64,000 nucleotides of DNA from Octopus sinensis (taxonomy: Eukaryota), in contig NC_043007.1 of the NCBI RefSeq assembly GCF_006345805.1, positions 20,398,001 to 20,462,000 on the forward strand, given 5' to 3'. How positions within the stretch are numbered: position 1 is the first letter of the stretch; each line of letters starts with the position of its first letter. Under the pieces are notes generated by a model. The model did no database searches and was not told the origin of the DNA. It saw nothing but the letters and a program-made list of their open reading frames with translations. Below are positions 37,504 to 54,770 of the stretch, piece by piece. Both the position numbers and the translations under genes were made by a program.

Positions 37504-38167
37504 CTAAGTCTTTGCTTCATCTTCATCTTCCTTCAGTATCTGTTCAGTAAGTCTTTTCCTTTCTTCAGCCTGTCGAAGTCTACGCAGAACCAAACTTTCA
37601 AAGGCTCTTTCGTCAGAGGTCATCGGCTGGTAAGAATCAGCTTGATAAGAATCAGCCTGGAAAGCCAACGGAGTTGGTGTCTGTAAATATATAAATATAT
37701 ATAAATAGTTAATCCAAACATGAACAAAGAAAAAACACAACCAATGCCAGGACGTGGAACAAATATAGTGTTATTGGACGCTCCCCCTATATATATATAT
37801 ATATATATATATAAGTTCAGCAAAACTGTAGATTCAAATGAATATGGTACTCAATTTAGATTCACCAGAATTTTGTATGGTGTTATTCATAAAAATCCAT
37901 GGGCTGATTATAATCAAAATAAGCAACAAGAATGACTCCGGTAATTTGGTACGATCGTTTCATACTACATCATTTTATTAAATGTTGTAAGTATTACAAC
38001 AGATTTAAGATGCTGAGTACTCATCAGCCAATTATAGAGGTTTTCCATTAATATAAAAGCTTTCATATTAATTGATAACATTATAGAGAAGGTAGATATA
38101 TAGACAAAGATGTGGATTTAAATTTTAAGAACATATGAGGTAGTGGAGTCCCTCCACTGACTGACTA

Positions 38168-38208
<41 letters not shown>

Positions 38209-41200
38209 ATCACCAGTGCCGCTGGACTGGCTCCTGTGCAGGTGGCACGTAAAAAGCACCATTTGAGCGTGGCCGTTGCCAGTACTGCCTGACTGGCCCT
38301 CGTGCCGGTGGCACGTAAAAGCACCCACTTCTAACTAGTCAAAATGGCAGTACACAACTTTGGACATTGGAAAATCAAGACAACAGTTTAGCTAAACAAA
38401 CACAATTTTTACCAGTAAAACTAAAATGTATCAAAGTCTAGCTTACTTTGTGAGGCATCTTTTCTGTTTCATTGTTGCATTCAGGCACAGCAGATGGGGG
38501 TGGTGCATCGATCCACGACAAAGTTAATGGGTTGTCCTCAAGTCCATGTTCACACAATAAGGCTTTTTGCTGCAGAAGTCAGAAAAAAATTATATCTGTG
38601 TTTAAAGAAAACAGAAATATGAATACAACCCATAGTTTTACGGTTCAAATAACTCTCCTACATCTCTAAAACACACACACAACCTTTATTTAATAGGAAT
38701 GGAACTTGAGGGAGTAAATCATCATCATCATCATCATCATCGTTTAACGTCCGCTTTCCATGCTAGCATGGGTTGGACGATTTTGACTGAGGGCTGGCGA
38801 ACCAGATGGCTGCCCCAGGCTCCAATCTTGATTTGGCAGAGTTTCTACAGCCGGATGCCCTTCCTAACGCCAACCACTCCGAGAGTGTAGTGGGTGCTTT
38901 TTATGGTGCCACCGGCATGGGGGGGGGAGGGGCAGCCAGGCGGTACTAGCAATGACCTCGCTTGAATCTTTTTACACATGCCACTGGCACAGGTGTCAGT
39001 AAGGCGACGTTGGTAACGATCACGCTCAAATGGTGCCCTTTTACGTGCCACGGCACAGGGGCCAGTCAGGCGGTACTGGCAATGACCTCGCTCGAATCTT
39101 TTTACACGTGCCACTGAAGCGACATTGATAACGATCACGCTTGAAGAGCAAAAATCATGATCTACAAGTCTTTACAATCAATTGATTTGTAGTTACACAC
39201 CAGAAAAGAACCCCCACTTCTGTTTATATGTGTGGTGGTATGTTTGTTTTTTCTTACTTACAAAATCATACGCAAGCCATACCTGCACAAGAAGGATGAA
39301 ATAATGAAAAAAAGTCACATCATCATTTCAACTCTTTAGCATTCACATTATTCTGTCAAAATATAATGCTCATTTTAATTTTTTTTTTTATTTATGCACC
39401 CTTTTCAAGCCTAGCCAGGCTCATGGGCCCAGTGTAATCCAAAATATAACAATAAATTTATCAAAAAGATTTATTTTTACTTACAGCCATAGTCAGGGTC
39501 TTGAACTCCACAATTCCACTTCCATTTTTCTTACTCGATACAACCAGGGCGGTAACTTCCCCATACTTCAAAGAAACAGAATTACAAAGGCATTTAAAGA
39601 CAGTCACCAGCATCTTATAGTATCAACCTTTAGCATGCAGTAGGCACACCATGTCACCATATGAGTTTTCTCCCCTCTCAATGCGATAAATGCACCTGCA
39701 GCTACAGGGGAGGAAATTCGTACTGTGCCATGATGCATCTAAGCATGCAAAAGGTTAAGATAATGCATTTATATATTACTGATTGAAAATGGGAATACAT
39801 TTACGAATCAATAAATGTTTGCATCATCAACATTGTTTAACATCCACAGGTCAGATGGGATTTTTAGTTGTAGTTGATTGAGTTTGTGTAGCAGCAGCAC
39901 TATCTTAGATATTAAGCTCTCCAACCACGACAAGCCCCACATAAAAGGGCGGCAAGCTGCCAGAATCGTTAGCATGCCGGATAAAATGTGTAGCCGTATT
40001 TCGTCTGACGTTACATTCTGAGTTCAAATTCCGCCAAGGTCGATAAATAAAGTACCAGTTACACACTGGGGTCGATGTAATCGACTTAATCCATTTGTCT
40101 GTCCTTGTTTGTCCCCTCTATGTTTAGCCCCTTGTGGGCAATAAAGAAATAGATATGTAAATTGCATTTGAACTTTAGAAGGTTCAATCACATCATAAGT
40201 ATTTTTTTGTTCCTAAAGAAGTAATTATCACCATCTAATGTCTATTTTCCATGCTTGAATGGGTCGGATTCTTTGACAGAACCTGGTCAACCAGAGGACA
40301 ATGCCAAGCTCCAAAGTCTACTTTGGCATGGTTTCTACAGATGGATGCCATTTCTAACACCAACCACTTTACAGAGTGTACTGAATGGTTCTTACCTGGC
40401 ACTGGCACCAGTAAAGTTACCAGGTAATCCATAAGACCCCATGAGGGAGGGGTGGTGTAGTATTGAGGATGGTGGATTTATGCCCAGGTAATGAAGGGTA
40501 AAATTGCGACAGATGGACAAGAACAAATGTTTTGCTGTCAGGGAGGTACATGTAGCATCGCCATGAGAAATAAAATATATCATTCCTAGCAACCTTAAGT
40601 GTTTTAACTGTGTTGCACAAGTGTAGAGATATCATACAAGATTGTCTCATTGATATACAGAGCAACTGTGTTTTCGAGCAAGGAAACTAGTGTGTCTGGC
40701 CTCCACTGAGATCATCATCATCATCATCGTTTAACGACTGCTTTCCATGCTAGCATGGGTTGGACGATTTGACTGAGGTCTGGCAAACAAGATGGCTGCA
40801 CCAGACTCCAATCTGATCTGGCAGAGTTTTTACAGCTGGATGCCCTTCCTAATTGCTAACCACTCCGAGAGTGTAGTGGGTGCTTTTACGTGCCACCGGC
40901 ACGAGGACCAGTCAGGGGGCACTGGCAACGGCCACGCTCAAATGGTGCCTTTTATGTTCCACCTGCACAGGAGCCAGTCTAGTGGCCCTGGCAATGACCT
41001 CGCTCAAATGTTTTTTCACGTGCTACCAGCACAAGTGCCAGTAAGGTGACACAGGTAACGATCACACTCGAATGGTGTTTTTTTACATGCCATCCATACC
41101 TAAAAGCATTGGTACTAATGCCAAGTAAAAAGCACTGGTGATGTGGCCACATAAAAATCACTAGTGATGGTGCCATGTAAAAAGCACCCAGTACACTCTG

Positions 41201-44200
41201 TAATGTTGTTGGTGTTAGGAAGGAGATCCAGCTATAGAAACGAAGCCAAAACAGATTATGGAAGTGGTGTGGCCCCTGGCCTTGCCAACTCCTGAGAAAC
41301 CATCCAATTCATGCCAACATGGAAAATACATTAAATGAAGATGATGTTGAGAGGCAATGCAAATGAGGGATTAAGTTACTTATGGATGACATTTTTGATT
41401 GAATAACGTTGAGAAATAGATGTTTAAGGTAACGTGAAGAATTTATGCTTCATTATTCCACTCAATAACAACACTAAGTCTCCAATGGTGTCTTCATGGA
41501 TAACAAGATATTAATCATAAGAATTTGAAAATAAAACCCTTCATTTTGCTGAACAATTAGGATTTTTTTTTCCTGAAAATTTAATTCGCAAAACCTCCAA
41601 AAATATGAATAATGTGTTTGAAGCTACTCTTCAGAATCTAAATGTATATTTGAAGATCTTACCTTAGAAAACAATTCCTCCAAAATATCTGCCGTATAGC
41701 CACCATTTGAAATATCTCCTTTTTTGGATTTCCATTTGATCTTTGAAAATTAGAGAAAAAGAAATAATTTATGCAATATTTAATCTGGACAGATTCAGAT
41801 CCCTTCCTTTTTCTCAAATTATTTGAAGTACACTTCAGTCACCAAACAGACCCATCAAGATATCTCGTCTCCTTATAACCAATTGAGGAATAATTACTGT
41901 TATCGTTATCATTGTTTTAATCTAGCTCCAAGTCATCACTGATCAAAAATCTTCCAGCCATGACCATCTAGCCTTCTGTATATCTAGGACAACATTGCTC
42001 AATCTATCCTTGAAGGTAGGAAGTGATTTGAGAGAGATTTATCAGCAACTGGCAGTATCACCCAGCGTTGCTCAGGTTTGTTTTGACCCTTTAGAATTGG
42101 AATTTTTGAAAAGTAAAAATTTTGCATTATGTAGCTTGTTATCTCTTAAAGTGAACATTTTTCTGGTTGAAATACACCGAAAAATGGAAACACAGCAGTC
42201 AAAAAATGGTAAAAAATAGGGATTTTCATAGAAAAAGAAGCACCTTTTTGATGTAAATAATTTTTGGTGTTAACATGGTCCGATTTGAATTTTATCTTCT
42301 ACAGAAGGAAGAGCAAGCCTTCTTTTATAATACTCTCAATTTTGGTCAACTTGCACCGCAGGGTCTTGGAGGAGATAGTGTTAGCTGAAGATTACCAAAC
42401 CTGCCATACACAGACAACTTCAGCTTTATATATACTTATAAACCCCTTCAGAGGTGTCTTCAGCTCTAGTGTTGGGTGCATGTCTTCTTTCTTCTGTTCC
42501 CTGGCCTCTTCGATGTATCATCAGCGAGCGTCAGCCGGTGACTGACTGGTCAAATTTTTCCCTTTAAATACCTGTCGCTAGGGAATTTGACAGGAAAGAC
42601 ACATCTGCAACCATGTCTAAAACAGGTCACATTAACTGCACTTAGCTGCCAATCAAAAAATGCAAATAGACTGAGTTGCTTTCACCTTGAATCAGAAAAT
42701 ATCAACCTAAATTTATGACACGCTACAAACCACAGCTAATATCATAGTTACATCCACAGTTAACTCAACAGTGAAAGTTACAAATATTACTGGCACCTGT
42801 GCTGGTGGCATGTGTAAAAAGATTCGAGCGAGGTCGTTGCCAGTACCACCTGACTGGCCCTGTGCCAGTGGCACGTAAAAAGCACTCACTACACTCACGG
42901 AGTGGTTGGCGTTAGGAAGGGCATCCAGCTGTAGAAACTCTGCCAGATCAGACTGGAACCTGGTGCAGCCATCTGGTTCGCCAGCCCTCAGTCAAAACCG
43001 TCCAACCCATGCTAGCATGGGAAGCAGACGTTAAACGATGATGATGATGATAATTACAAACATGTTTTTCTTCAAAAATAGTTAAATAGATTTAAAATTA
43101 AATTACCTTTAATCGGGGAAGCAGCTCCGATGAAGCTAAACACAAAAAGAAATATAATCTATATATAAATGATATAAGAAACCAGTTCATGACAGCAACA
43201 ATACAAGCAATTAACCCTTTCGTGTTTAAACCGGCTGTATCCGGCCCAAATATTCTACACATTTTATGCTCAAACTGGCCAGAACCAGCATCTCACACCT
43301 ACCCTGCAATGTCATTCTTAAAATAAGCAATTACGTCTTTCCTATCTGGAAGCTACAAAATAATATCTGATAATTTTTTTTTAAATGTGAATAAATAAGG
43401 ACTATTTTTGCCAAATTAATCTGAATTCTAAAGGGTTAAATGACAACTATATAAGCTCACATGTAACTTATAGTTACATGTCCATACATAGCCAACTATA
43501 CTTATAAATTGGTAACTCCACCTACAGGCTTCTTTCAGTTTCTGCCTACCAAATCCACTCACAAGGCTTTGGTTGGCTCGAAGCTATAGTAGAAGACACT
43601 TGTCCAAAGTGCCACGCAGTGGGACTGAACCCAGAACCATGTGATTTGTAAGCAAGCTACTTACCACACAGCCACTCCTACACCTATATATATATGTATA
43701 TATCGGCATTGAAGCCAGTCGTACCAGTGCCGCCTCGACTGGCTTCTCTGCTGGTGGCACGTAAAAAGCACCATCCGAACGTGGCCGATGCCAGCACCGC
43801 CTCGACTGGCTTCTGTGCCGGTGGTACGTTAAAAGCACCAACCAATCGTGGCCGATGCCAGACTCCTCTGGCACGTAAAAAGCACCCACTACACTCGTGG
43901 AGTGGTTGGCGTTAGGAAGGGCATCCAGCTGTAGAAACACTGCCAGATTAGACTGGAGCCTGGTGCAGCCCCTGGCTTCCCAGACCCCGGTCGAACCATC
44001 CAACCCGTGCTAGCGCGGAAAACGGACATTAAACGATGATGATATATATATATAAAGAAATATATTACTAATTACTTTCATTTATCTCGTGTTTTGACTC
44101 TTCCTCATTCATTTTTTCCTGCTTCATTTGTTCTTTTAGATATTCTTGTTCTTCCGCCAATAATTTAGAACCTTCTTTCTGTAAACGTTCAATCTGCAAA

Positions 44201-47200
44201 ACAAAACAGAAAAAAAAGTTGAATCATTAGTTTTAAGGTTCGTAACAAATACCTATCATTCTTCGTTTTTTAATCAAATCCATTCAGGTGTTGTTAGTCT
44301 TCTTAATTTTCACGATTCATGATTCACAAATCAAAATATTTCTAGTAATCAAACAAAAACTTTCATATTCAGCTTGAGCAGGTGTTATAATTAATTAATT
44401 TACATTACATATCTCCACTTTTAAGTAATGTAATAGCATCCATTTTTGTCTTAATAAAATGACTAGCTTTTACTCTTTTACTTGTTTCAGTCATTTGACT
44501 GTGGCCATGCTGGAGCACCGCCTTTAGTCGAGCAAATCAACCCCAGGACTTATTCTTTGTAAGCCTAATACTTATTGTATCAGTCTCTTTTGCTGGGGAC
44601 GTAAACACACCAGCATCGGTTATCAACAGACACACAAACACATATATATATCCAACGGGCTTCTTTCAGTTTCCGCCTACCAAATCCACTCACAAGGCTT
44701 TGGTCTGCTTGAGGCTTGCCCAAGGTGCCACGCAGTCAAACTGAAGCTGGAACGGTGTGGTTGGTAAGCAAGCTACTTACCACACAGCCACTCCTGTGTA
44801 AAGGTTATTTGTTTAAAATCCTGTTTTTGATGTCCAATCTTCCATTACCCACCAATAAATAAAGAGGTTTTAATAGTTTTTAGGAAACAAGTCATATTCT
44901 CACCTCAGCTTGTAAATTTATATACGATGCAGCTTCTTTCGCTTTCTGTTGCTCATAAGCATTTTCTCGGGCTTCTAAGTCTTGAAAATATAAAAAAAAT
45001 ATGGAACTTTATGTTGATGACAAGAATAAATGTTTAATATTTTGGAATGATTTTTCTCCTTTTATTCTGGAGCAGTTGTTTAACCTCTTAGCATTAACAT
45101 CACTCTGTTAAAATTAATGCTTTTTTTTTAATTCACATTGTTTTAAATTAATCATGCATTATCTTACAGCTATGAGATTTTGATGAGAATTCAACAAAGA
45201 ATTTACAATGATTATTAACCCTTTCGTTACCGTATTTCTGTTGAGATGCCCTGTGTTTCTTTCAATTACTTTAAATATAACAACGAATTTAGCAAAATAA
45301 CTTAGTTATCATTCAGCTAGTGTTTGGAACATAAATTGTGTCTAAGGTTTGGTGGAAGATTTTAATTCAAAACTTATAAAAACAAGACATTTGTACTCAG
45401 AGCCAGAGCCGGTTTCAGCCGGGTTGGTAATGAAAGGGTTAAATAATAATTTTAAAAGCCAAACACTCTATACAACATGTTAATTATTAACTAAGCATTC
45501 AAAACAAATCTAATATATTCACTTACACTGCAAGTTATCAAATATGCATGAAGCCTTAAATAGTCCAAAGATATAACAATGATTTCGGATCATAGCAGCC
45601 TACTATTTGATAGGTGCAAGTGTGGGTGTGTGGTTAAGGATCTTGTTACCAATCATGCAGTCTTGGGTTCAGTCCTACTGTGTGGTACATTGGGCAAGTA
45701 TCCTCTAATATAGCCCTGGGTTCACCAAAAGCCTTGTAAATGGATTTGGTAGACAGAAACTAAAAGAAGCCCATCGTATTTATGCATACTGACATGGGTT
45801 GGATGGTTTGACAGGAGTTGGCAATCCAGGGGACTGTGCCAAACTCCAATGTCTGCTACGGCAAGGTTCCATAGCTGGATAACCTTCATAGTTTCCAAAC
45901 AGCAATCATTTTACAGAGGGTACTGGATGCTTGTTACATGGCACCAACACCAGTGAGTTCTCCAAGTAACTCACAAGACAAAACCCCACAATTGAGCAAG
46001 GTGTTGTTGTATTGAGGGAAGTGGCTTTATGTCAAATTATGAGAGATTAGAGCAGTGTTCCGTGGAACCTTAGGGTTCTGCCAGTACAGTCCATGGGTTC
46101 CGCAAGAAGTTACAAAAATGCTAAAATCAATAGTAATTTTTAATTCTCCTGTGCAGATATGTGTGTATAAGACTATTAAATTATTGCACAGGGGTTCCTC
46201 GAGCCAGTGGAATGTTTCCTTGGGGTTCCACTCCAGCAAAAAGGTTGAAAAGCACTGGATTAAAGTATGATAGAGAGGCAGGTACAGATGTCTTGCTGTG
46301 GGGCAAATACATATTAGATCTTAAAATACATATGTTTTTATGTATATATATAACAAAGTAAAAGACATCAGTCAGTTTAAAACTATTCACCTTCTTTGAG
46401 TTTTTTCCGTTTACTGTCAAGTTCCTTATTTCTTATAATGGCAGCCTTTTTAGCTCGCCATATCTTGTCATATGCTGCCTGATAGAAAATATTTTATGTA
46501 TTTAATTGTGAAATAAAATATTCATTCAACTATAAAAACATTAAAAAATCAAAAGCATATTTATAAACAATAAGATGAAACCCGGAACAGTTGTCTTTTT
46601 AATCACATTACCCACACTATATATACATAGATATACACAACTAATGTAGGATAAAATTTTATCAATGGCCAGCATATCAAAAAATACCTTTAAAGGTTAA
46701 ATTTATAAATAACTTATAAAATAAGGGCAAAAGTAAAATTCTAATGCCAAATATGCCGAAATAAGACAAAATTGTCAATAACCATTATAATTTATGCGTC
46801 TCAAAACAAGCCAATAGAAATTTCTAAAAAATCCATTTTTATCGTATTGGTCCCAATTTCGGGGTTAATTCATAAGAATTTTCCCCTCCTCAGCGATAAA
46901 TACATAAGACATAAATGAAATACTTACTCATACCCATGGAAAAATATATAGATATAGATATATATATATAGATATGTGTGTGTATCAGTTTTGCACAAAT
47001 ACACTGAAAACTTACCTTCGCTGATATATCGGTTAAAACTTCAAGAGCCTTGGATAACTGTTGAAACTCTAGTGCTGGAATATAAGAAGAAAAAATCACG
47101 GTAATATTGATTTCAAATTTTGTCACAAAGCCAGCAATTTTGGGCAAGTGGGTAAGTTGATGCCATCAACTCCTGTGTTCAGCTGGTACTTACTTTATCA

Positions 47201-50200
47201 ACGGTGGCTAGCTGGCAGAATCGTTAGCACGCCGGGTGAAGTGCTTAGCGGTATTTCGTCTGCTGTTACGTTCTGAGTTCAAATTCCGCCAAGGTCGACT
47301 TTGCCTTTCATCCTTTCGGGGTTGATTAAATAAGTACCAGTTACGCACTGATGTCGATATAATCGACTTAAACCGTTTATCTGTCCTTGTTTGTCTTCTC
47401 TGTGTTTAGCCCCTTGTGGGTAGTAAAGAAATAAGTACTTACTTTATCAACCCCTAAAGGATGAAAGGCAAGGTAGACCTCAACAGAACTTGAACTCAGA
47501 ACATTAAGATGAATGAAATGCTACTAAGCAATTTGCCAGGTATGCTAATGATTCTGTCAACCTGCTTCCTCAACTGTCACATATTAGGAATTTCTTCTTT
47601 CTGGAAATGTTATCATTCGTGTTAGCAGAAGTTGTATGCTTTTGTAAACTTAGACATTTGTGCTATTGTTTTATGTTAAATGAGAATAGCATCTATGGAT
47701 GGTTAGTCGAGCGCTTACTAAAAAGTATATAACCTTGGAGTAATTAAACAAACACTTAATGACAAATAAAGGGCTTCACTTGATCTGCTTGAAATAGCAT
47801 CTAAATCTCCCTCACTTCATGCCATACAGTCTTAAATAAGGGCAACTAAAGTGGAGAAAGTAATCTGGTGAACAAAAAGAGGGGATGGTCACAGCTAGAA
47901 AGGCTCCGACTGATCAAGGTAGACCTGGAACTAAACAATTTATCCACCAAAAATGCACCAATCTCAGGTTGTATCAAATTATTGATTTGGCGTTAGAAAC
48001 ACTGCCAGACCAGACTGGGGCCTATATCTTCTTTTACAGTTTCATTCATTGGACTTTAACTACGCTGGGACAAGACCTTCAGATTGTCTAATCAATTATA
48101 TCGACTGCAGCACTTAAATCAAATAATCAGTTAGTGAATGGTTAAATTTCCTGTCACGTCGCTGTAGGGAGTTATCTCCCTTCACTCGCTAAACGTCACA
48201 AACAATTTACACTAACTCGCACATATGATCTGCTCCTGTAATATCTCTACCCACCATTCTTTACTCGGAAGTAATTGGTCAATTACTACAGTAAAGATAG
48301 ATCCTGAGGGTGCCACAGTGTTCGTAATCTTTTTCAAAATAAAGTCAAACCTGCACCTACAATTTCTTTTTTGCCTCTCATCCTCTGTTGCACTCTAATC
48401 TCCTCCAACTCTATTTTTTTGCATTCAGCCTATTCCTGTCGCTCTCATCAATTGCTCTTCCAATCAATAATTAAATTATTATTGCAGCTATTATTTATCA
48501 TTACATTCTAAGAGTTTAAATATTAAGGAGGTTGATTTTGTCTTGTGGCACGTAAAAAGCACCATCCGAGCGTGGCCGTTTGCCAGCCTCCCCTGGCACC
48601 TGTGCAGGTGGCACGTAAAAAGCACCCACTACACTCACGGAGTGGTTGGCATTAGGAAGGGCATCCAGCTGTAGAAACACTGCCAGATCAGACTGGGCCT
48701 GGCACAGCCTTCTGGCTTCTCAGACCCCAGCTGAACCGTCCAACCCATGCTAGCATGGAAAACAGACGTTAAACGATGATGATGATGATTCCGTCTAAAA
48801 TCTATAATTAAATTATTAAGTTTCGTTTTTGGATTTGGTTTGCAAAATTCTTTATATGAGTTTGTGTGTTGAAGCATATTCTGTTGTGTCTAGGGAGAGT
48901 CATTCTCTTTTTGTGCCTTATTATGCAACACACTCACCGGTAAAATTTCCACCTTTTTCTTATTTTTATTGTTCTAAAATTTTCGTTGCGTCTTGCTACC
49001 TTTTCAATAGTTTTGGGAGTCAAAACTATTGAAAAGGTTGAAGCATATACTGTTGCGTCTGGGGAGAGTCATTCTCTTTTGGTGCCTTGTGGTTTAACAC
49101 GTTCACCGGTGGAGTTTCCACTTATTTCTTTTTAATTTTTCTAAGGTTTTCGTTGCATCTTGCAACCTTTTCAATAATTTTGAGAGTCAAAACTATTGAA
49201 AAGGTTGCAAAATGCAACGGAAATTTTAGGAAAATATAAATAGGTGCAGGAGTGGCTGTGTGGTAAGTAGCTTGCTAACCAACCACATGGTTTCGGGTTC
49301 AGTCCCACTGTGTGGCATCTTGGGCAAGTGTCTTCTGCTATAGCCCCGGGCCGACCAATGCCTTGTGAGTGGATTTGGTAGACGGAAACTGAAAGAAGCC
49401 TGTCGTATATATGTATATATATATATATATATGTGTGTATGTTTGTCCCCCCAACATCGCTTGACAACCGATGCTGGTGTGTTTACGTCCCCGTCACTTA
49501 GCGGTTCGGCAAAAGAGACCGATAGAATAAGTACTGGGCTTACAAAGAATAAGTCCCGGGGTCGATTTGCTCGACTAAAAAGGCGGTGCTCCAGCATGGC
49601 CGCAGTCAAATGACTGAAACAAGTAAAAAAAGAAAAAAAGAGAAATAAGAAAAAAAGTGGAAATTTTACCGGTGAGTGTGTTACATAATAAGGCACAAAA
49701 AGAAATGATTCCCTCCAGACACAACAGAATAAATTATTAAGAGGTTGATTTTGTCTTTTATTTCATCTAAAATCCGTAAGATTATACCTCTTCTACTATA
49801 AATATGCAGTCTGGTATCGATATAAAACCTCACCATTATGTATTATTACTGAATGTGTATCAACATACATTATCATTATTGCATTATATGTTTGTGTTAT
49901 GGGAGAATCCCAAACACCTCAGCATGTCTGAAGAGAGACTCACCGATTACAGAAGAAATGAGTGAACCGTCAGTAGCTGAACAGTGACTATTGAGTATTG
50001 TACCTACATTTGAGTAATATGAAGTGAATACAGTGTTAACATGTGTCTATAATAGGTTATTTTTACATAACTACAACCACCTCTCTCTCTTTTACTCTTT
50101 TACTTGTTTCAGTCATTTGACTACAGCCATGCTGGAGCACCGTCTTTAATCGAGCAAGTCGGCCCCAGGACTTATTCTTTTGTAAGCCCAGTATTTATTC

Positions 50201-50296
50201 TATCGGTCTCTTTTGCCGAACCGCTAAGTTACAGGGACGTAAACACACCAGCATCGGTTGTCAAGCAATGCTAGGGGGACAAACACAGACACACAA

Positions 50297-50327
<31 letters not shown>

Positions 50328-53086
50328 CATATATACGACAGGCTTCTTTCAGTTTCTGTCTACCAAATCCACTCACAAGGCTTTGGTCGGCCCAAGGCTA
50401 TAGGAGAAGACACTTGCCCAAGGTGCCACGCAGTGGGACTGAACCATGTGGTTGGTAAACAAGCTACTTACCACACAGCCACTCCTGCGCCTATTTATTT
50501 GTGTAATAATATTTTACGCCAGACATGTATATCCACGCCATATCAGTTTGTTATTTTAAAATGTATTAATCATTATTACAATTTGGATTACAATGAATTT
50601 TTCCAAATGGATTTCTCACCTGCGTTTGCATTATCTGGATTTTTATCAGGATGGCATTTCAGAGCTTTTTTTCTGTAGGCTGAAATAATCTGGGGGAAAA
50701 AAAATAAAAGAACAAATAAACATTACGTACAAGTAAAATTCCATTCAAACTTTTCATTCAACTTAAAGCAGCTTCATAACGATATGTTCTTGTTTCAAAT
50801 AGTCTGTACAAGAAAGGTCCACAAGGCCCCTGGGGTGTCCATATAAGATTTTGTTGCAATACACAAAATCATCATCATCGTTTAACGTCCATTCTCCATG
50901 CTAGCAGGGGTTGGACTGTTCGACTGGGGATCTGGGAAGCCAGGAGGCTGCACCAGGCTCCAGTCTGATTTGGCAGTGTTTCTACAGCTGGATGCCCTTC
51001 CTAACGCCAACCACTCCGTGAGTGTAGTGGGTGCTTTTTACGTGCCAGGGGAGGCTGCCAGCAGCCATGATCAGATTGGTGCATTTTACGTGCCACCGGC
51101 ACGGAAGCCAGTCGAGGTGGCTCTGGCAATCGGCCAAAAATATTTTGACAATTTCTTATACAATTCCTAAAAATTATAAAAGTATATTACGGAGATGTAC
51201 TTGCATAGCAAGTGACCTGATCTGAGATCGTGTGCTGGAACGAAAACAATTGCAGCGTGTATGGTGTTTAGCACGGAATTTTGTCAGTGAACAGGTCGCG
51301 GTCTCAAAGCGCCGAAAATATTTTGACAACTTAAATTTAAATGTTGAAGTGAATCTAACGGATTTTGTGTGTTTCTTAAATGGCTTATAAACACCTTCCA
51401 TGCTGCAATTGTTTATAAAAATATAATAGAATTTTTTTTTTTAAATCAAAATAGATGAACATCAATGGAATTTGTATCCTTGTGGTACCAGTGCCGGTGG
51501 CACATAAGAAAACCATCCGAACGTGATCGTAGCCAGTACCGCAACGACTGGCCTCCGTGCTGAAGGCACGTAACAAACACCATCCGAGCGTGGTCGTCCG
51601 CCAGCCCCGTCTGGCACCTGTGTCGGTGACACATAAGAAAACACCATCCGAGCGTGGCCGTCAGCCAGCCTCGTCTGGCACCTGTGTCGGTGGCACATAA
51701 AAAACACCATCCGAGCGTGGCCGTCTGCCAGCCTCGTCTGGCACCTGTGTCGGTGGCACATAAAATCACCCACTACACTCTCGGAGTGGTTGGCGTTAGG
51801 AAGGGCATCCAGCTGTAGAAACACTGCCAGATCTGACTGGCCTGGTGCAGCCTTCGGGCTTGCCAGACCCCAGTTGAACCGTCCAACCCATGCTAGCATG
51901 GAAAGCGGACGTTAAACGATGATGATGATTAGATGGGAATGGGGGTCCACCCGAGTAAAATAGGAATCAAAAGGATCCAAAGGTAAAAATGGTTGAGAAC
52001 TACTGCTCTATATGATCACAAGACCTGCTAAAAGTAGCAGCCAAATTTCCTTCAAATCGCACCTTACTACTCATTACATAATAGTCCGAAGAATGATGTT
52101 TGAGAGGTCAGTTACAGTTGAAACCTCTTTGAAGAAAGAGCTGCCTGACTTGGGTTGACTTGGAGTCAAACAACTTGACTATATTCAGAACATGTTCTAA
52201 AATACACCGGTCATATGTTTCTTTTTCTCTTTCTCTCAGACATACTATCTCCATTACATAGTAGACCTGAAACTAAATATCAAACACTTTGCCTAATTAA
52301 CGTATTTTAAGGAACACTTTTTTGTCAAAAATTAGGTTAAAAAATATGGGAGTTTCTTATACATGGATAGTATTATAATCCCTTTAAAAAATCTCTTTTC
52401 CAAATTTTAAGCCCCAAAAATTAGGGGGTTCCTTATACACGTTAAATACGGTACTTCTGGTTAGAATTCTAGCAGCCTTTTGGCGTTATTATAATAATGA
52501 AATTGTTGTATACAGTGCTCAGGTGCACCACAACTTGGCAAAAAGTGCGTATAAAGTATATGCAGTAATGTACAAATCAAATATACAAATTTTAGATTCC
52601 TATCAAATATACAAATATAATTGCTTGTATCCCTCTGAAACTTGGTTTAGTCTCATTTATTAAAGGTCACTCATTAACTTGAAACATCGGTAAATCTTAC
52701 CCATTAACGCAATGTTTAAAAAGGAGCGAAACAGCGCCATCCTTTCTTTGCACCAAACATTAGGGTTCTTTCCATCACAGATCCACTTTAAAAAATACAT
52801 TATTAAAACCCAAAACAAAAAGTAAACTTCTTCTCTGGTTGTATAATCCAGTAAGACTACATACAAGTTCAAAATCCGCATTTAATCGATAAGCTGGAAT
52901 ATTTAAATTTGAATTCATACTTTCGAAGGTTGTAAATATTTTCGCAAACTTCCTCAGTTTCAAAGTAAGATATTAGCAAATCGCTCCATGGAGCTAAGGT
53001 TACCAAGAGACATCTTTCGGTACAAGTACCATAACTGCCAAGTCTGTTTGTTTACATCTGAAGAAGATCGTCACTTTCTGTAAAGT

Positions 53087-53151
<65 letters not shown>

Positions 53152-54212
53152 GGGTTAGGGTTAGAGTTTGGATTAGGGGTGGGAGAAAAGGGTTACTTTT
53201 TTCTTCAGAAATGTAAATAAACCCACGTGGGTTTATAATTGGCAGTACTTGTACCGAAAGATCGCCAATAGAAGATTGACCAAATATTTCATTTAAATTT
53301 ATCCGGGAAGTAAAAGTTATATCTCGTTCTTGGATCTGGTTTGCAAGATTCTTTATATGAGTTCGTGTGTTGAAGCTTATTCTGTTGTGTCTGGGGAAAT
53401 ATTTCATTTAAACTTATCCGGGAAGTAAAAGTTATATCTCGTTCTTGGATCTGGTTTGCAAGATTCTTTATATGAGTTCGTGTGTTGAAGCACATTCTGT
53501 TGTATCTGGGGAGAGTTATTTCCTTTTTGTGCCTCTTATAATGTAACACACTCACCGGTAAAATTTCCGTTGCGTTTTGAAACCTTTTCAATAGTCAAGA
53601 CTATTGAAAAAGTTGTAAGACGCAACGAAAATTTTAGGAAAATAAAAATAAGAAATAAGTAGAAATTTTACCGGTGAATGTGTTACATTGTAAGGCACAA
53701 AATGAAAATGACTCTCCCCAGACACAACAAAAGTAATATCGTAAATGTTTATAATTTCCTATTTCTTTTCTACCCACAAGGGGCTAAAAACACAGAGGGG
53801 ACAGTGCGAAACTGGTACTTTATTTATCGACCCCGAAACAATGAAAGGCAAAGTCGACCTCGGCAGAATTTGAACTCAGCGTTAACGACAGACGAAATAC
53901 CGCTAGACATTTCGCCCGGCGTGCTAACGATTCTGCCAGCTCGCCGCCTTCATAAATATTTATAATTTCCATTATTCTTTCTAATTATTCCCGATGTGAA
54001 TGTAACTACAAATGACATTTATAATAATAATAATAATGAAATTATTGTATACAGTGCTCACGTGTACCACAACATTTGTTTACTATTTTCTCCCAAATCG
54101 TAAAATTTCTGTAGACAGGTCAACAATAAAGCCATACCTCTTTCTTAGTGGCTGTTTCATCTATTTGGAGGAGAGAATATAGATCTAATTTCGTAATATC
54201 GGTTGCTGCCAT
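37504..54212 (-). CDS. DNAJC17: DnaJ homolog subfamily C member 17 (J-domain, coiled coil, RRM), 11 exons, 324 aa
   Basis: Exons on - strand (GT-AG, total 975 nt): 54212-54138, 50689-50620, 47074-47016, 46478-46391, 44980-44904, 44193-44076, 43135-43107, 41740-41663, 39565-39485, 38569-38447, 37680-37504. Motifs: DLYSLL..AYRKKALKCHPDKNPDN (HPD), IERLQKEGSKLL, PRLKIKWK..NGGY..FSKYGEV, NPLTLSW, FESLVLRRLRQAEERKRL. AATAAA on - strand near 37326. Confidence 0.95.
37943..38033 (-). ncRNA. Type I minimal hammerhead motif with palindromic stem III, DNAJC17 intron 10, sense
   Basis: AAUUGG CUGAUGA GUACU...(UGUUGUAA uac UUACAACA)...AGUAU GAAA CGAUCG UA CCAAAUU. The stem III palindrome is ACGAUCGU; predicted cut after GUA at 37950/37949. 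Confidence 0.8.
46838..46900 (-). ncRNA. Type I hammerhead ribozyme motif (canonical core) in a Penelope-like repeat, DNAJC17 intron 3, sense
   Basis: - strand reads UUUAUCG CUGAGGA GGGG(aaaauuc uuau gaauuaa)CCCC GAAA UUGG ga CCAA UA CGAUAAA. Stem I is 7 bp, stems II and III are intact, and the predicted cut is after AUA at 46845/46844. Confidence 0.85.
48790..49735. repeat. Fold-back (palindromic) repeat family; other copies at about 24560-24780 and 53285-53735
   Basis: Arms such as CACCGGTAAAATTTCC...AAATTTTCGTTGCGTCTTGCAACCTTTTCAATAG face their reverse complements across a short centre. This copy is interrupted by a SINE at 49241-49640. Confidence 0.8.
51281..51329 (+). ncRNA. Second, identical copy of the G3:C8 variant hammerhead motif
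   Basis: The 49 nt are identical to the reverse complement of 14653-14701. Confidence 0.65.
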
Positions 54213-54407
54213 GGTTCGTAGTAAAAGTGTGTTTGTGTTTCGTTGAAGAAAGACAAATGAATGAAAAACCGAAAATTCCGGGAAAGCAATATGCAAGGGA
54301 GGTAATAACACTTCAGCGATAGTTGCGTAAATTATAATTTAGTTTCATCCAAATTTTCGTCATTAATACATTTAATTTAATTTCATAAATAATAAAATAT
54401 AAATTTT

Positions 54408-54770
54408 ATATTCTCTTCTTGAAATAGATGAAACAGCCACTAAGAAAGAGGTATGGCTTTATTGATAACTTGTCTACAGAAATTGTACGATTTCAGGGAA
54501 AATAGTAAACAAATGTCATTTATATTTGAGGGATCTTTTTTTAAAATTTATATTTTATAATATCGATTACTGCCATGGTTTAATAGCAAAAATGTGTTTG
54601 TGTTTCATTAAAAAAATACGAATGAATGAAAAACCGAAAATTCCGGGAAAGCTACATGAAAGGGAGGTAATAACACTTCAGCGATAGTTGCGTAAATTAT
54701 AATTTAATTTCATTCAAATTTTAGTTACTAATACATTTAATTTAATTTCATAAATAATAAAACGAATTAT
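54408..54770. pseudogene. Rearranged duplicate of DNAJC17 exon 1 and its promoter (one inverted and one direct segment)
   Basis: About 54408-54517 is the reverse complement of about 54072-54180. About 54557-54765 is a direct copy of about 54194-54400. Confidence 0.85.

Follow-up and report, generated by a model that had tools for sequence, protein, structure and literature searches.

A type I hammerhead ribozyme motif lies in sense orientation in intron 3 of a DNAJC17-like gene of Octopus sinensis, and we consider it probable (roughly 80%) that this motif is a passenger copy of a Penelope-type retrozyme, carried by a 5'-truncated member of a repeat of about 469 nt. The copy is likely neutral, cutting the DNAJC17 pre-mRNA rarely or never. 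Because the motif sits in one truncated copy of a multi-copy repeat, it is likely an ordinary passenger rather than a gene-control device. The DNA analysed, referred to here as the window, is a stretch of 64 kb, and all coordinates below are positions within it.

37507..54212, minus strand: coding span of the DNAJC17-like host gene, 11 exons, encoding protein P0001 (324 aa)
46479..47015, minus strand: intron 3 of the DNAJC17-like gene, 537 nt, GT..AG
46945..46985: TA-rich microsatellite at the 5' junction of the repeat copy, the likely target site by the pattern of the family
46638..46944, minus strand: 5'-truncated lone repeat copy, covering the unit from position 148 as far as the second of its common 3' ends
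46617..46637: TA-rich stretch at the 3' junction
46838..46900, minus strand: type I hammerhead ribozyme motif, sense to DNAJC17-like intron 3
46900-46894 with 46844-46838, minus strand: stem I, UUUAUCG with CGAUAAA, seven Watson-Crick pairs
46835..46844, minus strand: 3' arm of stem I, with the private changes G1.3A, U1.7A and C1.10U; the 5' arm has C>U at 46904
46887..46893, minus strand: catalytic box C3-A9 (CUGAGGA), position 7 being G in this copy
46861..46886, minus strand: stem II, with 4 bp, an AA/AA internal loop, a 5-bp inner helix and a 4-nt loop
46886-46883 with 46864-46861, minus strand: outer pairs of stem II, GGGG with CCCC
within stem II, minus strand: inner helix AAUUC/GAAUU, closed by a UUAU loop
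46860-46858, minus strand: G12-A13-A14
46846..46857, minus strand: palindromic stem III, forming 4 bp and a GGAC loop as a monomer or a 5+5 bp duplex with a second copy
46844..46845, minus strand: predicted scissile bond, after A17 (46845) of the AUA triplet, placed by hammerhead numbering

The host protein P0001 (source label Octopus sinensis) contains Pfam DnaJ and RRM_1 domains and maps to 11 minus-strand coding exons; orthologous proteins were found. The intron at 47015-46479 sits between coding exons 3 and 4, which are joined in frame. The original prediction, made from the sequence alone, had placed a sense hammerhead in intron 3 of DNAJC17 about 115-180 nt past the donor of a 537-nt intron, and this location was confirmed: the motif (minus strand, 46900-46838) spans 116-178 nt 3' of the exon 3 donor in a GT..AG intron of that length. 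The predicted cut leaves 171 nt of intron on its 5' side and 366 nt up to the acceptor, and the break proposed at 46845/46844 agrees with hammerhead numbering. Two donor-like motifs (GG|GTATGA and GA|GTAAGT) lie within the repeat copy at 46935-46924 on the minus strand, about 80-90 nt 3' of the true exon 3 donor. They are possible cryptic 5' splice sites, and no use of them was seen in the contigs of four sequencing runs.

All conserved type I core nucleotides were present (C3 U4 G5 A6 N7 G8 A9, G12 A13 A14, A15.1-U16.1 and H17), surrounded by helices of 7, 4(+5) and 4 bp, with helix I open. The CUGAGGA core, the GGGG/CCCC stem II with its inner AAUUC/GAAUU helix and the 7-bp stem I had all been read correctly in the original prediction. 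Its GAAA element holds for G12-A13-A14, the last A serving also as A15.1 of stem III. Its 5-bp AUUGG/CCAAU stem III does not hold for a monomer; with a fifth pair, only 2 nt would be left for the loop, and the monomer form therefore has 4 bp and a GGAC loop.

In a descriptor scan of the 64 kb, the motif was the sole match, and a search of the window found neither a second hammerhead nor a second palindrome. Rfam returned no hammerhead match at gathering score for the whole window and none at E<=10 for 46400-47200. The long stem II and stem III of this motif may lie beyond what the Rfam models cover. Because of this silence, the hammerhead call rests on the core descriptor together with conservation across the family, and on these grounds the motif in the DNAJC17-like intron is real.

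The hammerhead belongs to a non-coding repeat unit of about 469 nt that is present in high copy number in the genome. A search of the octopus genome for the motif and its surroundings (221 nt in all) returned 2503 candidates; 40 of these were scored, with 49 matches at 88-100% identity. The exact pattern of core and stem III occurred at no fewer than 753 genomic places, compared to 0 for the reversed control. We defined the unit by mapping 73 loci onto a natural unit from locus L063, and what follows describes the top-scoring copies, the only ones examined. Tandem copies were present at L063, L045, L065, L087 and L078 as dimers and, at L078, one trimer, with a hammerhead spacing of 468-470 nt (513 in one case) and a GC content of 31-32%.

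Within 93 loci we delineated 119 same-strand runs, 100 of which were at least 150 nt long. Among these 100, 89 terminated at one of two unit positions, 71 were followed by TA-rich DNA, 26 exceeded one unit and 5 spanned two hammerheads. The 5' starts of the runs were spread evenly along the unit; an enrichment of 5' ends at the cleavage site was rejected, given that only 3 of the 100 starts fell within 14 nt after the cut. At 9 of the 40 scored places the repeat was adjoined by an opposite-strand (inverted) partial copy. No coding ORF common to the repeat copies was found at 42 loci. Donor- and acceptor-like motifs flank the hammerhead, and an intron inside the element was also considered; it was rejected since none of 121 loci contained a precisely spliced copy, and the contigs of four sequencing runs held no spliced joint within the element.

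Two other members of the family deserve description. L155 (G000:C394) is a diverged tandem pair with a period of about 330 nt and without most of the 5' part of the unit, and one of its hammerheads has U at position 7. L020:1117-1820 (G000:C5 near 30490589), recovered among the first 20 loci, lies about 200 nt 3' of the donor of a Hep_59 / C9orf78-like exon, and its stem II carries an A10.1-C11.1 mismatch. Because this copy is also intronic and in sense, such a placement is not unique to DNAJC17. A literature search for octopus with hammerhead, ribozyme or Penelope returned no description of the repeat family; the supplements of PMC4209133 and PMC7229834 may list it.

The copies form dimers and partial tandems, carry inverted 5' pieces, share two fixed 3' ends and lie at (TA)n targets, an anatomy that makes the repeat a likely non-autonomous Penelope-type retroelement, that is, a non-LTR retrozyme. 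As described in PMC8557442, insertions of Penelope-like elements (PLEs) can be truncated at the 5' end, partly tandem or accompanied by inverted 5' copies; they also bear tails and favor (TA)n. What defines non-LTR retrozymes, according to PMC7229834, is a type I hammerhead within tandem units that are short and low in GC, and a preprint derives retrozymes from the pseudo-LTRs (pLTRs) of PLEs and gives, for Xenopus, an overlap with introns of 42-44% of retrozyme copies (bioRxiv 10.64898/2026.07.22.740005).

One locus contains a frameshifted Neptune-type Penelope-like element (L043:5600-9640) with RT, a CX4CxxC linker and GIY-YIG, the clade being assigned by the linker, a motif taken from PMC8557442. 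This family is very abundant and young, with 16851 candidates, the top 150 of which have 92-100% amino acid identity and include open frames of 800-1000 aa. As an autonomous partner sharing sequence with the unit, however, the Neptune-type element was rejected: the unit was present at 1 of 30 Neptune-type loci, which was the starting locus L043 itself, and no common sequence was found beyond it. A relaxed hammerhead scan of the same 30 loci found nothing. The abundant Neptune-type PLE could nevertheless supply the enzyme for copying the retrozyme.

These observations bear on an alternative to which we give a small chance, namely that the repeat is a solo pLTR of an unsampled autonomous Penelope-like element; the passenger verdict would be the same. 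The repeat shares tails, (TA)n targets and inverted 5' pieces with PLEs (PMC8557442), PLE pLTRs are described as bearing hammerheads with a palindromic helix III (PMC4209133), and the copies considered here are the best-scoring ones. However, what precedes whole units is further unit sequence and not an ORF. In addition, tblastn with Neptune RT/EN pieces matched 2 of 121 element loci: in one RT/EN lay downstream of the element, and in the other a TA run lay between. No RT plus GIY-YIG ORF flanked by the unit was present among the sampled loci.

If the repeat is a retrozyme, as we favor, tandem units in source copies would be transcribed, and two hammerheads about 469 nt apart would pair via their palindromic stem III. 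Cleavage by the paired hammerheads would release RNAs of unit length, perhaps followed by circularisation, and a Penelope-like RT/GIY-YIG protein acting in trans would copy the unit RNA into nicked (TA)n sites. Copying would begin at one of the two fixed 3' ends and break off at varying positions. The window copy would then be one such truncated product, inserted where intron 3 has a TA run and by now diverged by about 3% from related copies.

We asked how the ribozyme is conserved within the family using an alignment of 98 copies (97 distinct); 42 of the loci behind it were chosen with patterns in which part of the motif is fixed, and the sample is therefore biased. Across the 97 distinct rows, 95.2% of stem cells were paired, a value inflated by relatedness among the sequences, as is every pairing measure other than the count of two-sided changes. 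One stem II pair changed from GC to AU in 8 of the 97 rows, and two stem I pairs were altered on one side, yet still paired, in 24-25 rows. Pairs with a two-sided change numbered 5, versus 2.6 after shuffling (46 of 500), and none was in stem III. Covariation is thus modest, with two-sided change not beyond that of shuffles. N7 is polymorphic in the family (A, C or G) while the other core positions are conserved. In the contigs of the four runs, likewise, no core position except N7 reached a threshold of 10% variation; in run X3, N7 was about 59% A, 26% C and 15% G by summed depth, which is not a copy number. Because the free N7 varies while the other core positions and the pairs are kept, we infer that the ribozyme has been selected within the family.

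The window copy occupies 57% of intron 3 and matches the unit at 91.6% over 299 nt, with no further match elsewhere in the window. Contigs of the four sequencing runs did not cross the insertion junctions, and the exon 4 side lacked cover in all four. The unit ends in an AT-rich hairpin (as at L124 and L125), and a short deletion has removed the middle of this terminal hairpin from the window copy at 46650-46660. L125 matches the tail of the window copy at 99% and is without the changes of the window hammerhead.

Relative to the column majority, the window copy differs at 10 of 305 positions (about 3%); four of the differences are CpG transitions, and four changes fall within stem I. In siblings this stem consists of 6 bp, a 2x2 loop with an unpaired U1.7, and then 3 bp. 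A at positions 1.7 and 1.3 gives the window copy its seven Watson-Crick pairs, and its distal pairs are weakened, having decayed through CpG changes. Other copies retain U1.7 in 94 of 97 cases and G1.3 in 95 of 97. Genome-wide, the family version of the stem I arm was found in 818 copies and the window version in 2, the second carrier being L155, a distant and independent copy. When N7 and a poorly covered tail column are excluded, 2 of the 4 non-CpG substitutions convert non-Watson-Crick stem I positions to Watson-Crick. According to PMC11875169, solved hammerheads have an unpaired U seven bases after the cut that makes a Hoogsteen contact with loop II, and U1.7 is not essential in engineered trans ribozymes. 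Thus, extending stem I to seven pairs is a private departure from the family, and it may reduce activity. A literature search on U1.7 and on exon tethering yielded no match.

It had been proposed that this hammerhead works as a gene-specific monomer, cutting the DNAJC17 pre-mRNA in competition with splicing. That reading is not supported: the motif is part of a high-copy repeat and stands as a lone copy, with a private stem I and a stem III whose predicted stability is confined to the duplex. Tuning of the window copy for that role, as an exapted intronic ribozyme, is highly unlikely. The core is intact and in sense, and the two non-CpG changes that complete stem I are unusual (2 copies versus 818), but intact cores are common in the family (at least 753 copies), the identical perfect arm arose independently in the distant L155, and the window copy has lost U1.7 and let its distal stem I pairs decay. 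A template switch between the arms of stem I could give both perfecting changes at once. The two changes speak against neutrality, yet both can be explained by chance among hundreds of copies or by a single such event, with selection as the less probable cause. Precedents for exaptation exist, in that intronic hammerheads have been proposed to act in amniotes (PMC6155905) and activity of the CPEB3 ribozyme has been shown (PMC10919898). In CPEB3, however, the next exon is 9931 nt away (PMC10919898), whereas in the octopus intron the 3' splice site follows 366 nt after the cut. At the mammalian elongation rate quoted in that study (3.5-4.1 kb/min), the acceptor would emerge, by a rough estimate, about 6 s after the ribozyme. 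Published cleavage rates for retrozyme monomers, 0.8 per min for coral and 0.1 per min for mussel (PMC7229834), correspond to half-lives of about 1-7 min; the comparison can be only rough, as the rates are not from octopus and splicing itself is slower.

Whether a lone copy would cut at all depends on stem III, which reads AUUGG-N(1-2)-CCAAU in all subfamilies seen, with GA, A or U as the spacer. Its predicted energy is +0.5 kcal/mol as a hairpin and -12.3 kcal/mol as a self-duplex. The palindrome thus appears to suit dimer cleavage, being predicted stable only as an intermolecular duplex. As described in PMC4209133, metazoan type I and PLE hammerheads have a palindromic helix III and act as dimers, and single min-HHR motifs of PLEs did not cleave. 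The hammerhead is not the predicted minimum-energy fold, in which CUGA mispairs with UUGG. The predicted share of the hammerhead fold was 0.7% when the motif was folded alone and at most 0.5% within the intron, from models that ignore tertiary stabilisation. Because a family-typical sibling also scored low (0.07%), this share is weak evidence and does not separate active from inactive copies. On the other side, invertebrate retrozyme hammerheads with a 2-bp helix III are reported to cleave efficiently (PMC7229834). Because coral and mussel retrozyme monomers cleave, cleavage by the window copy as a monomer is possible by analogy. In one viroid hammerhead assayed with four triplets, AUA proved the slowest (PMC1636495).

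A rough energy sum for the window copy gives -39.3 kcal/mol for a double hammerhead compared to -35.8 kcal/mol for two monomer folds, and this raises the idea that free retrozyme RNA might join a lone intronic copy in a double hammerhead and so cut host pre-mRNAs. We hold this to be very improbable. Retrozyme circRNAs are abundant in mussel (PMC7229834), and contigs of one putative RNA run cover the octopus repeat, although they give no strand, ends or circle. Yet the energy sum is crude, and known dimer hammerheads work in cis in tandem transcripts. Furthermore, when three natural units were folded in silico as circular monomers, they scored better than shuffled sequences (z of -2.8 to -4.1), 62-63% of the RNA was paired, and in none of the three was stem III an exposed hairpin. 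It is just as improbable that a retrozyme with a palindromic stem III has seeded introns, such as those of DNAJC17 and the C9orf78-like gene, with lone hammerheads that are silent alone and switched on in trans. Lastly, an arrangement of short motifs that arose by chance in AT-rich DNA would be consistent with the silence of Rfam and with a folding z of only -2.2 for the 63-mer, but it is ruled out by the conservation of the family, whose pairs are preserved even as the unconstrained position 7 varies, and order-3 Markov simulations of 64 kb gave nothing comparable (0 of 60 at stems I>=7, II>=4 and III>=4; 1 match of any quality in the same 60).

The passenger retrozyme can be set beside known systems. 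Like the octopus repeat, metazoan non-LTR retrozymes of mussel, coral and axolotl, as described in PMC7229834, carry a type I hammerhead in a short, low-GC, non-coding unit, occur as dimers or multimers in hundreds to thousands of copies, and have a well-paired predicted circular monomer. The octopus unit, at 468-470 nt, is longer than theirs (170-400 nt, with repeats of 150-450), and unlike them it occurs mostly as dispersed truncated copies with inverted 5' pieces. Its palindromic stem III is also longer, and its stem II contains an internal loop; the unit is known here from DNA copies, its circle being a prediction. With PLEs and their pLTR hammerheads it shares the palindromic helix III suited to dimers (PMC4209133, PMC8557442), as well as 5' truncation, partial tandems, inverted 5' copies, a 3' tail and the (TA)n bias (PMC8557442), but in contrast to PLE pLTRs it has no RT/GIY-YIG ORF attached at the sampled loci. 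Because its family stem I has 6 bp plus an internal loop, its stem II has 4 bp and no bulge follows A9, the octopus hammerhead is not a min-HHR.

The amniote intronic hammerheads of RECK, CTCL and DTNB (PMC6155905) are likewise type I, sense, intronic and retroelement-derived. Domesticated intronic hammerheads are recognised by deep conservation, and those of amniotes are conserved across deep lineages (PMC6155905), whereas the octopus copy lies about 3% from hundreds of siblings. The CPEB3 intronic HDV-like ribozyme is a model for cleavage in competition with co-transcriptional splicing; it differs from the octopus motif in its fold and in its distance to the next exon, and its function was measured in CPEB3 itself (PMC10919898).

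With this repeat, the known non-LTR retrozymes gain a cephalopod family. Its Penelope-style insertion anatomy on a non-coding unit agrees with a proposed origin of animal retrozymes as non-autonomous derivatives of Penelope elements, and its history serves as a caution: an intronic hammerhead that looks 'perfect' can be a repeat copy that has drifted. If the host intron were cleaved, whether by the copy alone or in trans, a recent transposon ribozyme would be acting on a splicing-related gene; if cleavage were activated in trans, transposon expression would cut host pre-mRNAs.

The window contains further repeated DNA. Other abundant short interspersed repeats flank exon 3 (for example at 47190-47560) and fill the window, and one flank of L155 has about 28 matches within it. 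An inverted near-duplicate of DNAJC17 coding exon 1 is present on the plus strand at 54406-54519, about 200 nt 5' of the start codon.
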